This document shows, in pieces, positions 5,403 through 49,600 of a stretch of DNA of 64,000 nt. The notes beneath the pieces are model-generated. The model was not told where the DNA came from. It saw only the letters and a list, made by a program, of their open reading frames with translations, and searched no databases. Source of the stretch: Euglena gracilis (lineage: Eukaryota); NCBI GenBank assembly GCA_039621445.1, contig CP154954.1:43751847-43815846 (forward strand). The letters are read 5' to 3'. A program made the position numbers and the translations under genes. Position 1 is the first letter of the stretch. Each line of letters begins with the position of its first letter.

Positions 5403-7721
5403 ATGTCGCTGGCTGACTTGAGGCAGGGCTGCATCAATGGTCTCCCTCCTCCCAACCAGGGGTTTTTTTTATCCTTGGACCCGGGGGGGGGTCCTGGAGG
5501 ATCCACTCAAATTTCCCTGAAAGTGCCCAAAAATTACGAAAAATGCTAAAAATAGCACTTCTTTCAAAATTTTCGGTGCCGAAAAGTATATCCCACTGCC
5601 CCCCGGTCTTAAAAAAACACCTCCTCCCAACATGGCGTGTTACTCCATGTTGTGTGGCCTCGGCTTTGGGCATGAGTGCTTTGAGTCCCCACATTCTGCC
5701 CTGGGGCCGACTTGCACAGCGGCTCATCCATCAGCAAGTACCTGCAGAAGTCGTTTGAGAAGTATGGTGTGGAGAAGCGAAAGGAGATGTCCGTGAAGGA
5801 GGCTGTGGCCATCGTGGAAGGCTTGGGCCGCCTTTGTTCCGTGACAACTGGGCCCCTAAATGATTTCCTAACTGCACTGCACCTCATCGCGCCGCACTGC
5901 ACCACACCACATCGCGCCACGCCACGCCACGCCACGCCACGCCACGCCACGCCACGCCACGCCACGCCACGCCACGCCACGCCACGCCACGCCACGCACA
6001 CACACACACAGGCACACGCACACGCACACGCACGCGCACCCGCACGCGCACGCGCACGCGCACGCGCACGCACGCACGCACGCACGCACGCACGCACGCA
6101 CGCACGCACGCACGCACGCACGCACGCACTCACGCACGCACGCACACACACACACACACACACACACACACACACACACACACACACACACACACACACA
6201 CACACACACACACACACACACACACACACACACACACACACACACACACACACACACACACACACACACACACAACGCACACACACACACACACACACAC
6301 ACACACACACTACCACACACCAGACACCACACCACACCACAAAATGCAGATCCAGGAATGCAAAGCGCGCAATGCAACGCCACAAGGTAGTTGCTGCTGG
6401 GTCGGCCAAGGCCATCAAAACGATGTGCAGGGGGCCACAAGATGAAAAATGTTTGGGCCGTGGGCCAAAATAGTTTTTTTTTGGGTTGGGCCAGGGTCAG
6501 ACACCCAACCAACCACCTGACCTCTGGCCGCCAAACCTCCCGTGATTGACCACAAGTATGGTGCGATCAGGGATGGATGGGAAGCCCTTCGGTATTGAGG
6601 TAGGTGGTAGGGAGGCCCCACCCCCCCCCCCCCCTAGGGGGGTAAGGTGGTAGGGGGGGGGGGTCCGGACCCCCACCCCCTAGATGTTGGGAGGGGGGTC
6701 CAGACCCCCCCCTCCTTGACAGGTGCCAAAAATAGCAGGAATTTTTCTTCCGGTGCTGTGCGCCGGAAAATGAGCAAAAAATGCCCCTTTTGCTGACTTT
6801 TGGACATATTGCCCATTTTTTGATGTGTTGGTGTTTTTCCCCCAAAAAATGTTCAAAAAATTTCAAAAAATGAGCATTTTTGTATCGATTTTCAAAGAAA
6901 AACCACGGATTTTTGACCGATTTCGACCCATTTCCGGCTCTTTGCCCGTCCATGAAATCGAAAAATTTTCGGCCCCTCCTCAGTTTCGATGTAGGAGGGG
7001 GGGGGTCCGACCCCCCCCCTCAAGGCTTCCCATCCATCCCTGGGTGCGATGCAGTGCGGTGCGGTGTGGTGTGGTGCGTCTGGGCTGCCCCCTGTTTACA
7101 AATGAAAGACAACCTCGGTGCCCGGCCATACAGGCCCAACCCCCACTTATGGCACATGACACAAGGCTTTCATGCAGCGGTGTGGGTACACACACCTGTG
7201 GGGCCGGGGACGTGGGGAACCCCTGGGCACCGGCGGGCCGACAGTCGACCTGTATGAGCACACCGGCCTCGACACCCCTGCCGACTGGGACAAGAAGCTG
7301 CTGGAGGCGCTGCACCCGCTGGCCGCCGGGGACGCGCTGACCGTCCCGGCATTCTGCACCGCGCTGATGGGCTCCGCGGAGGGCCCCCTCCCGCTGGAGG
7401 TGGGGGAGGTGGGGTTTGGGTTGGACCCCGGCGGACACTTTGAAATGGCTGTGGGTCCCGAAGGCGGGGCCGCGGACCGCTATGGACACCCCCCCCCCCC
7501 CATCAGCCAACCCAGTGGTGGCGGGGGGGGGGGGACGGGGTCAGGTCGCCTTTTTCAGGGGGAGGCCCTCACGTTCTTGCCTGCAGCTGCGGATAGGTGG
7601 GGGGGTGGGGGGGGGCTGGCCAGCCTTCCGAGGCGGGGGCCCTCTCCCCAAGTTCTTGGAGGGGATGGAGAAGAAGGGCAGCCTGAAGGCGAAGAAAGTC
7701 TTCGGGGAGGCCCAGGGCTGA
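5403..7721 (+). pseudogene. 3'-truncated paralog of the EF-hand-like/CEP19-like gene (exons 1-4 only)
   Basis: Exons 5403-5420 (MSLADL), 5709-5825 (DLHSGSSISKYLQKSFEKYGVEKRKEMSVKEAVAIVEGL), 7244-7381 and about 7623-7709 match exons 1-4 of the gene at 34603. No counterpart of exons 5-12 is seen before the next gene. A 4-nt insertion lies near the exon 4 start. Confidence 0.65.
6568..7042. mobile_element. hAT-like MITE, 19-bp TIR, 8-bp TSD
   Basis: TIR CAGGGATGGATGGGAAGCC / GGCTTCCCATCCATCCCTG. TSD GGTGCGAT at 6560-6567 and 7043-7050. Absent from the paralogous intron near 35800. Confidence 0.9.
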
Positions 7722-46600: not shown

Positions 46601-49600
46601 ATTTTCACAAGTTTCCACCAGTACCCCATCTGTGGTTTATTTCTATTCTTTTTTTGTCTGGTTGCCTGCAAATCAGCAATTTTTGGCCTCCTTTGGCCAT
46701 TTTGAACCACCTTTCGCCACTTTTGGCCACTTTGGACTGCATTTTGGCGATTCAGACCACTTTTGGCTGTTTGAATGCATTTTTGCTTCATTTATGCCTA
46801 TCTTTGGCTGTTTCTGGCTGTTTTTGCACATTTTTGTCCATTTTAGGACTGCTTCTTTTCCACTTTTTGCCCCTCTTTGGTGACTTTTGGTCATTTTGTG
46901 GCCACTTGCACAGATTCGGTGACCATTGGTACAGACTTGGCGAGATCTGGTGGCAAAACCAGGTGATTTGGAACAAAAACACCTAAAAATGACCAAATTC
47001 ACTCAAAATGCATTTTTATTGCAATTTTGTGATCAATGGCGCTTTTGCGGGTGTCCCCCCCCCCCCCGGATGAAACCGAGGACCCTAGGGTGAGCAATGA
47101 GTACAGTAATGGTGATCCCATGTGGCGACGGGGCAAAAGGTCCCGAGCACCTGGCTGGGCCCATAAAACTGAGCAAACAGATGACTCATGTGGGACAAAA
47201 AAAAAGAGGCCAAGGCTCTGACCCCAGGGGCCATGCATTGGTTGTGCTGTGCACCTACTGCATGGTTTGAACAAGAATATCTGTGGGCAAACCACTTTGT
47301 TGCATGTGTTTTTTTCCCGGTCCCCCCCCCCCCAAGGCAACCCACCGGATCCCACCGGATCCCACTGGATCCCACCGGACCCCACGGGAGGCCAAAAACT
47401 GGGGATGACTGTCCTTGCCTGCTTGAACCCCCCTTTTTAGGCAAAATTCCTTTATGGCGCTGAAAAAAGGGCCCAAATAACCTGGCTGGGGGGTGCAGGG
47501 CCAAAAGTTGGTTCCAATAGCCAGGCACCCTGGCAGGTTATTTGGGGGGTTTACCTCATTTAGCACTCATTTGGCATTTGGGGGATGTATAGAAGATTCA
47601 CCTTGCTGCAATTTTTTTTTCAAAAACTATTGCATTGCCCCAATTTGTCAATCATCAGCTCTCATCTGAAGACTTGGTACCCAACATAAAGCATTTGCAC
47701 ACCAAATTTAGTATTAGCCACTGAAATTGAGCAATTTTCACCCAAATAATAATGCATTTTTGCACACCAAATTAGGAATTTGCCTCACAGAATTACCCGA
47801 GAATAGGATTTTACACCCAATAGGCATTTGCCAACCCATATTTGGCATTCGCTCCTCAAAATTAGGAGCCTTGTCACAAATTAGGAATTTCCCACTCAAA
47901 ATTACTCATCAAATAGTAAGGGATCACCACTCAAAATTCAGTGTTTTGCACCCAAAATTAGGAATTTGCACTCAAAAAAGGGATTGGCACACTAAAGTCA
48001 GGAATTCGGAACGGACACCAAATTAGGCATTTGCTACTCAAATTTGCTTGACACCAGCTTCCGTCACACCGTTGGCCAGCCGTAGACCAGCCGTATGCTG
48101 CCCCCAAAGTGAACTGAACTGGGCTACCCAGCCCCCCTTGGATGGTCATCGTTTTTTGACAGGGTGTTTTAAGACACGTTTTTTTTTTTTGAGGAAATAA
48201 ATGTGTTTCTTTCAAAAAAAACGCTCGCCCTCACACGCACCACCATGGGGCACCGTAACGCGCGCAAACACATGCACAAACACAAACCCGCACGCACACA
48301 AACACACCTGCCCACCCACCCACACACACCACACCCTCACTCACTCACTCATTCACTCAACCCCCCCCCCACTGGGCAGCTCACACCACACACCAACACA
48401 CAATTAAAAACCGTTGTGTGGCGAGACCCGGCTCTGCGGGCAGCGGCATTTGACCCCCGCCACCGGCTGCGGGGCGCTGGCGGAGCGGCTGGTGAAGGTC
48501 CACCCAGACGTGCTGACGGTGGAACGACTCGTGCCCCTCCTGGAGGTCTTGCAGCGGCACATGCCACCCAGGAGGGCCGCTGCTGTGATGGGTTTTCTGC
48601 GCCACCTGGGCTGTGGCAACGGGGAAATGAGGCGGGGGGCCTAAGGTGTGCTTGGGTGGGTGGGTGGGTGTGTGTGTCACGAAATCCTCCTCTTTTCCCC
48701 AATTCACTTCCCCCCAAACCTGGTTGCATAGACTCCATGCGTTGTGGAGCAATCGTCTAGCGGGGGCAGGCGGCTACCTTGCCAGCGGGATATGGCACTC
48801 GTCTCTTTCAGGGTCGTCACAGGGCAGCATCAACTCCCCCAAATGACAGCCGGACGGAAATTGCCTGCCGTAGTTCCCTGAGATACAAAACCCTACACGT
48901 ATGCATGGAGGCGGCCGGGACACACTCGGTACGCCGTGCCCGCTGGCCTCTCTGTCCCCAAAGGGAAGCTCAGGCCCCGGTGGGGCGGAACCGCCGGCCC
49001 CTCCGCCCCGCCGCGCCTCCGCCAACGGCGACGATGCAGAGGGGGGCGGCCGCCTGGGCGGCATCGCCCTGGAGGGGGATGACGCCGGCCAGGGCACTGC
49101 CCTTGAAGTGGGTTAGTTGCGGCGTTTGGTTGTGTCTTACCCGCCGGGCAATTGACGCCCCCGGGCAATTGTCACCCCTCTCTGTGCTGCCCAATTTGTC
49201 ACCCCCCCCCCCCCACAGAAGATGCCTGTGAGCTTCTTTTCGCCGACACGACTCGATTGATCTGCTATTTTGCTACAACGTGCTGAGAACTTTCACATAC
49301 CAAATGTTCTGCACAATATCACAACCATAGCTGCATTTTTGCGTGTTCACTTGTGTTTTAGATGGTGATTTTGGTCATTTGGTGTTAATGTGGATTACAT
49401 GGGTGGTCAATTGACGCCCCTGGGCACTTGTCACCCCCCTGTGTGCTGGCCAAATTGTCACCCCAGGAAATTGTCACCCCCCTCCGTGCTGCCCAATTTG
49501 TCGCGCGACAATGGCCTGGGGGGGGGCAGGTATGCGTGGGTATGCGCAGGTGTGCATGCGTGCATGTGCACGTGTGTGCGTGCATGTGTGCGCGAGGCAT

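Follow-up and report, generated by a model that had tools for sequence, protein, structure and literature searches.

The nonconventional introns of euglenids pose a question that has been open since the 1990s, namely where they come from and how they are removed. [quoted passage not shown] The present study concerns a 64,000-nt stretch of the Euglena gracilis genome (assembly GCA_039621445.1, contig CP154954.1, positions 43,751,847 to 43,815,846 of the forward strand; hereafter the window), in which four MITEs, M1 to M4, begin with CAG and end with CTG and lie among the exons of genes with nonconventional introns. The locus raises the question of whether elements of this kind are the source of such introns. 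Specifically, M1 to M3 are flanked by exact 8-bp target-site duplications (TSDs), and the two spacers of the splicing rule add up to one such duplication, so that an insertion would cost the mRNA nothing. Together with the geometry of 28 introns in two genes, this suggests that the nonconventional introns are, on balance probably, relics of inserted CAG...CTG transposons that had made 8-bp duplications.

Both the splicing rule and the idea of a MITE origin are already in the literature. The code for nonconventional splicing, obtained by knock-ins in E. gracilis, reads 5'-N3CDG-/-CH'GN5-6|R-3' (Nomura et al. 2025, PMC12501133). According to that report, splicing is abolished when the 5' spacer is changed by one base, one extra base is tolerated in the 3' spacer, and splicing also takes place in fully artificial 50-bp sequences, provided that they combine the code features with a paired region. 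For E. gracilis, a 2024 survey describes CCAGG as a motif of the 5' end (PMC11170887). The MITE origin was put forward in 2014 (Milanowski et al., PMC3935182), at a time when, as that paper states, no transposable elements were known in euglenids; a 2024 review repeats it, terming CAG/CTG a terminal inverted repeat (TIR) and the junction repeats TSD-like (PMC11282704), and it returns in the 2025 discussion (PMC12501133) and in a paper on diplonemids (PMC12621601). The portions of these main texts that deal with the MITE hypothesis give no TSD length, no superfamily, no free CAG...CTG element and no relation between the 3+5 spacers and a duplication. What the window adds is the elements themselves, CAG...CTG MITEs flanked by 8-bp TSDs, together with the match of 3+5 to 8. 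It gives the published hypothesis a sharper, quantitative shape.

A reading of the window made from the letters alone (the sequence-only reading) had described four CAG...CTG MITEs, three with exact 8-bp TSDs and the fourth with an imperfect one, and this description is borne out. Direct reading and exact-match searches place CAG at the start and CTG at the end of all four (Table 1), with subterminal tandem repeats of 10 bp in M2, 32 bp in M3 and 10 bp in M4. An unbiased scan of the window, which required a TIR of at least 11 bp with at most one mismatch and an exact 8-bp TSD, returned M1 to M3 only, two poly-G/C rows being added when no low-complexity filter was applied. In 40 windows simulated under a Markov-1 model the same scan gave a mean of 0.1 matches, with one match in each of four windows and never more than one. 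When any flanks were allowed, M1, M2 and M3 were the only ones among 2842 TIR pairs with no TSD mismatch. The window holds no second full copy of any of the four MITEs. Within the intron that holds M4, at 45050-45062 and 1.1 kb upstream of that element, is a lone match to its right TIR with one mismatch, which may be a remnant of a related element.

The recent history of two of the insertions can be read from a 4.8-kb segmental duplication, detected by comparing the window with itself, in which copy A (3014-7799) and copy B (32226-37557) are 79-83% identical. Copy A carries a single, uninterrupted target exactly at the position that M2 occupies in copy B (Table 1), and copy B is without M1, having a (CGGTG)n microsatellite at the corresponding place. 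The duplication is therefore older than the insertions of M1 and M2. Read with their flanks in the direction of transcription, all four MITEs conform to the published splicing signature, down to the purine at position 6 of the duplication, and the join predicted for M2 by a 3+5 cut agrees with its paralogous empty site. The sequence-only reading had argued that cuts placed 3 nt ahead of the element and 5 nt beyond it restore the target; its arithmetic is correct and agrees with the experimentally defined code (PMC12501133), which it did not cite.

The genes that host these elements were identified from the protein side. A peptide from the conserved block beside M2, used as a query against a protein collection, matched the EukProt proteins EG_transcript_14797 (P0003, 385 residues) at 100% identity and EG_transcript_1590 (P0004, 744 residues) at 95%. 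With EG taken to stand for Euglena gracilis, these two proteins mark the window as nuclear DNA of that species. Spliced protein-to-DNA alignment of P0003 and P0004 to the window, on a tblastn skeleton, gave the models of gene B and gene A, respectively; intron borders and intron removal rest at the protein level on these two transcriptome-derived proteins. P0003 differs from the mapped exons of gene B at 5 of 385 residues and P0004 from those of gene A at 16 of 744, and the placement of the 17-nt first exon of gene B is uncertain. P0003 matches the CEP19-like family in Pfam (PF14933, E 4e-16), and P0004 matches inorganic pyrophosphatase (PF00719) in three stretches (E 2e-156). The segmental duplication took in the 5' exons of the CEP19-like gene; in gene A this truncated copy is joined by splicing to three pyrophosphatase units arranged in tandem, the 744-residue EG_transcript_1590 being the protein of the resulting chimeric transcript. 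Beyond what had been noticed before, all four MITEs lie inside introns of these two expressed genes: M1 in intron 2 of gene A (5820-7246), M2 about 30 nt from the 5' end of intron 3 of gene B (about 36200-37409), M3 in intron 5 (about 38600-42009) and M4 in intron 8 (44869-48441) of the same gene. An exonic position of M2 was considered and rejected, since the indels in the alignment of copies A and B are not multiples of 3 there and P0003 skips the region.

The two mapped transcript proteins define 28 introns, and most of these carry the spacing that an 8-bp duplication would leave. We took as the offset of an intron its length minus that of the element bounded by its longest terminal Watson-Crick helix, a measure that is independent of how a slidable border is placed. 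The offset is 8 in 11.0 of the 28 introns (ties being weighted) as against 3.6% of 378 control pairs of mismatched 5' and 3' ends; it is 6 in a further four introns and 4 in one, values to be expected from a helix that happens to run on outward. If borders are moved only where this does not alter the protein, N3-CAG...CTG-N5|purine, with CAG at +4 to +6 and CTG at -8 to -6, can be placed in 12 of the 28, which upholds the geometry previously proposed for ten introns. Introns 1-3 of gene A, as paralogues of introns 1-3 of gene B, were dropped to leave an independent set of 25, of which 19 fit a helix in the 3+5 position, every one of them with a purine starting the next exon. The triplets at the ends of these 19 are CAG/CTG in 11 and others, such as GAG/CTC, GAC/GTC and CGC/GCG, in eight. 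As a side observation, RAC starts nine of the 19 exons that follow such introns, and the 3-nt spacer is GCC in seven.

The introns outside this class are of several kinds (introns are designated by gene and number). A16 is a GT-AG intron, A6 follows a 2+5 geometry and A4 is a new junction at the duplication breakpoint, while none of the geometries tested fits B2, A14 or A15. A 2+5=7 geometry had been claimed for two introns of the pyrophosphatase gene: 10233-12437 does fit 2+5, but for 13387-13845 the transcript supports an intron of 507 nt (about 13374-13880) of the 3+5 type. In the intron created at the breakpoint (7698-9527), the intron-4 homologue's original 5' end is preserved (CAGGGCTGACC at 7713), but the donor has shifted 12 nt upstream and is paired with a new 3' partner in a 9-bp helix, G-U pairs included, at an offset sum of 8. 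The arrangement has the look of a nonconventional intron built anew with a different partner.

One intron in the window still has the appearance of an element. The fourth intron of gene B, B4, has an 11-bp TIR of the CAG...CTG type, CAGGGCTGACC/GGCCAGCCCTG, and its 8-nt flanks, GGGAGGCC/GGGAGGAG, are identical at six of eight positions; its length equals that of a TIR-bounded element plus 8 nt (1005 + 8 nt), as would be left by an element with a decayed duplication. Across the junction P0003 reads KAKKAFGE|EGRAAL, which confirms the removal of the element with exactly 8 nt; as direct reading of the sequence indicates, the intron start can slide over 37464-37471 with the mRNA unchanged. The 5' end of B4 is also found in copy A, and the intron hence predates the duplication. 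Inside it, two inverted segments (37993-38085 and 38226-38284) are 76-83% like the interior of M1, which suggests, from sequence likeness, that an old M1-family element is nested in B4.

A possible trace of target duplications is also seen in the introns as a group. For the 19 introns of the 3+5 type, the flanks in register 8 are identical at 65 of 152 positions (42.8%), where permuted pairs lead one to expect 53.4 (35.1%; p=0.022). In a set of 18 introns chosen by their helix, 62 of 144 positions agree in register compared with 30-49 of 144 in eight shifted registers, making register 8 the highest of nine (permuted-pair p=0.013). Identity reaches 6/8 in three introns, B4, A9 and B7. The flank remnants reported by the sequence-only reading, 6/8 for intron 37470-38482 and 5/8 for intron 12538-12750, are as it stated; the comparison with permuted pairs that it had called for, carried out here on the introns of the window, yields an excess in register 8, and the excess is modest. 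The observations of that reading hold for the most part, the exceptions being the intron at 13387-13845 and a class of 7-bp TSDs.

These observations can be arranged into a single scenario. At least four different non-autonomous MITE families with the hallmarks of hAT elements (an 8-bp duplication, inverted ends of 13-21 bp that begin with CAG, and subterminal repeats) are present at this locus; M1 and M2 at least were inserted later than the local segmental duplication, and all four elements now lie in introns of two expressed genes. The ends of such an element, together with its 8-bp duplication, reproduce the order 3 nt, CAG, paired stem, CTG, 5 nt, purine, and a machinery that reads the 3+5 rule would remove the element along with exactly one copy of the duplication, restoring the uninterrupted target. 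Most introns of genes A and B follow the same geometry, and intron 37470-38482 is still element-like, with what looks like a decayed duplication.

Several features of the locus weigh against such a descent and are in keeping with another view, in which 3+5 is an intrinsic ruler of the splicing machinery that equals 8 by coincidence and the MITEs are ordinary transposons in insertion-tolerant introns, not ancestors of introns. All four MITEs are passengers nested in introns; none constitutes an intron itself and none is exonic, and in many genomes MITEs are nested in introns. The excess of flank identity is small (n=19, p about 0.02), and position 7 of the duplication matches in one of 19 introns because N3 tends to GCC (7/19) and exon starts tend to GAC (7/19), a pattern suggestive of preferences in the sequence, not of a duplication that has decayed. 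The longest perfect helices, those of B5 (11 bp) and B6 (12 bp), have flanks identical at only 3/8 and 2/8; CAG/CTG is absent from 8 of the 19 introns with a 3+5 fit, and 6 of the 25 independent introns do not fit 3+5 at all. Within the window, a comparison of intron termini with MITE TIR families, as had been proposed, revealed no family common to an intron and a free MITE. The code, moreover, tolerates a 3' spacer of 6 nt as well as 5 (PMC12501133), and with a duplication of 8 bp a 6-nt spacer would not give a seamless join. A mere coincidence, however, does not readily account for an identity that is highest in register 8 and above permuted pairs in both sets of introns, for B4 with its 11-bp TIR and 6/8 flanks (matched in flank identity by A9 and B7), for the code-required purine in all four MITE duplications, or for the report that 84.4% of E. 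agilis introns are slidable, that is, flanked by short direct repeats (PMC12501133). We regard coincidence as rather unlikely; were it true, what remains would be a few new hAT-like MITE families in introns, an ordinary finding. The descent of introns from CAG...CTG transposons, which we prefer, is more likely than not, and the proposal that hAT-type MITEs are generators of seamless introns is supported in part: the splicing signature, the M2 join, B4 and the flank identity speak for it, and the lack, in the window, of a MITE that is itself an intron and of a common TIR family speaks against it.

The identity and direction of movement of the elements bear on the same question. hAT elements are described as having TIRs of 10-25 bp and TSDs of 8 bp (PMC3942097), and in the window the TSDs are exact in M1-M3 and 6/8 in M4, with perfect TIRs of 19, 13, 21 and 13 bp. 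From these features we infer that M1-M4 belong to the hAT superfamily. TIRs that begin with CAG and subterminal repeats are also typical of hAT elements, as is the target preference nTnnnnAn; counted over the four MITE TSDs, T at position 2 and A at position 7 occur at 6 of the 8 positions, a small sample. CTTNNNAC, which is in line with that preference, makes up three of six element duplications (40481-40488, 46195-46202 and 27438-27445); these duplications, the RAC exon starts and the GCC spacer may reflect a preference, of target site or of splicing, that goes further than the published purine. There are other superfamilies whose duplications are 8 bp long, and an origin of the MITEs from one of these, under which their link to the introns may still hold, would agree with ends that have only CAG(G) in common, with subterminal repeats that differ among them, and with a Pfam scan of eight long open reading frames (ORFs) of the window that revealed no transposase, only one sub-threshold RVT_1 match. 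We consider it improbable in view of the hAT-like termini and duplications, an 8-bp TSD with a 10-25-bp TIR being the textbook description of that superfamily (PMC3942097). Among the literature matches listed, no paper is about hAT elements in Euglena; one on Merlin transposons (PMC8101967) mentions both Euglena gracilis and hAT. It is also conceivable that the flow ran in reverse, circular excised intron RNAs being copied back into DNA such that the MITEs are retro-copies of introns and not their source. Nonconventional introns are reported, with reference to earlier work, to be released as full-length circles (PMC11282704), and a circle cut at 3+5 would bring 8 extra nt. The flanks of M1-M3 are, however, exact local target duplications, and the paralogue of the M2 site has a single copy of the target, which together are the signature of a staggered cut in DNA, not of sequence carried over; in addition, subterminal repeats are a typical transposase-binding architecture. 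We hold this reverse route to be very improbable.

Two further TIR elements lie between genes A and B, at 26426 and 28055 (Table 1). Both had been noticed earlier and are real, but the class of 7-bp TSDs to which they had been assigned is unsupported: in each, the right repeat is followed by C, which is also the first base of the element, and both duplications can equally be read as 8-mers. The TIR of the 28055 element resembles that of M1 with CAA/TTG termini, and neither element satisfies the splicing signature, since the one at 26426 would leave a pyrimidine at the exon start and the other has CAA/TTG. A diverged second copy of the 26426 element, 80-84% identical, lies at about 58168-59309, with its right end intact and its left end degenerate. 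Segments of M2 (36676-36753), M4 (46597-46897) and the 28055 element (28321-28391), as well as the unannotated 30715-31050, have in common an internal core rich in TTTTGGCC despite their different TIRs. The window also contains a dispersed repeat family of 17-bp tandem units (CAATTGCCCGGGGGCGT) at 22593-23043, 40113-40306, 42322-42825, 49143-49532 and 50035-50215, and in gene B its copies are arranged as inverted pairs within introns 5, 6 and 10. On the forward strand, 53649-56240 holds ORFs resembling reverse transcriptase (RVT_1, E 6e-6, below the Pfam cut-off) and, after them, one that has a YLDD motif, and is probably a decayed retroelement.

Table 1. Genes, transposable elements and related features of the 64-kb window (positions are those of the window)
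Feature	Positions	Strand	Description
Gene A	5403-21849	+	P0004 mapped; 18 exons, 17 introns; M1 in intron 2
M1, 475 bp	6568-7042		TIR CAGGGATGGATGGGAAGCC, 19 bp, perfect; TSD GGTGCGAT at 6560-6567 and 7043-7050, 8/8
Paralogous empty site of M2	7400-7407		Single GTGGGGGA in copy A, exactly at the M2 position of copy B
TIR element	26426-27437		Starts CAGGGGGGGAA, ends TCCCCCCCCTG; flanking repeat CTTGCTA 7/7, or CTTGCTAC 8/8 with the first C counted
TIR element	28055-28772		CAAGGATGGATATTG ends, 15 bp; flanks TGGACGG/TGGATGG 6/7, or TGGACGGC/TGGATGGC 7/8
Gene B, CEP19-like	34603-51436	+	P0003 mapped; 12 exons, 11 introns; M2, M3, M4 in introns 3, 5, 8
M2, 956 bp	36233-37188		TIR CAGGCACCTATGG, 13 bp; TSD GTGGGGGA at 36225-36232 and 37189-37196, 8/8
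Nonconventional intron B4, 1013 nt	37470-38482	+	Element 37473-38477 (1005 nt), with 3 nt before and 5 nt after
M3, 1016 bp	40489-41504		TIR 21 bp, starts CAGACATTCATTTAGTGTGGT; TSD CTTCAAAC on both sides, 8/8
M4, 1219 bp	46203-47421		TIR CAGGCAAGGACAG, 13 bp; flanks CTTGGAAC/CTTGAACC, 6/8 or one indel

The locus can be set beside three known systems. The introns of the window resemble the euglenid nonconventional introns already described (PMC12501133, PMC3935182) in that they follow the code (12/28) or the 3+5 helix (19/25), and the four MITEs fit as well; in contrast to the published cases, these MITEs are passengers inside introns, not introns. Introners, found in Micromonas and others, are DNA transposons resembling MITEs that turn into spliceosomal introns and take over a splice site from the TSD (PMC11282704). 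As here, such elements have TIRs and TSDs at their borders, and removal of the element with one TSD copy restores the coding sequence; however, they use GT/GC-AG sites, the spliceosome and TSDs of 3-5 nt (PMC11282704), whereas removal here would follow a non-spliceosomal 3+5 rule measured from a stem, with an 8-bp TSD, and no multi-copy intron family is seen within the window. Finally, hAT-superfamily MITEs such as Mar and BuT2 (PMC3942097, PMC3517528) likewise combine 8-bp TSDs, 10-25-bp TIRs, no coding capacity, lengths of 0.5-1.2 kb and signs of recent insertion, but four families that differ in both TIR and subterminal repeat occur here in one window.

A bolder extension, which we offer tentatively and to which we give less than an even chance, is that nonconventional splicing protects the whole genome as an immunity adjusted to a single geometry of transposon: RNA would be cleared, to the base, of any CAG...CTG element that makes an 8-bp duplication with a purine at position 6. 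If so, the four MITEs would be excised from their host introns as nested introns, giving circles with one target copy at the junction, and insertions into exons would start out neutral; this would account for the share of nonconventional introns in Euglena, over two-thirds of the total. For the wider question of where these introns come from, real CAG...CTG elements with 8-bp duplications would supply the rationale for the 3- and 5-nt spacers and would make the MITE hypothesis directly testable.

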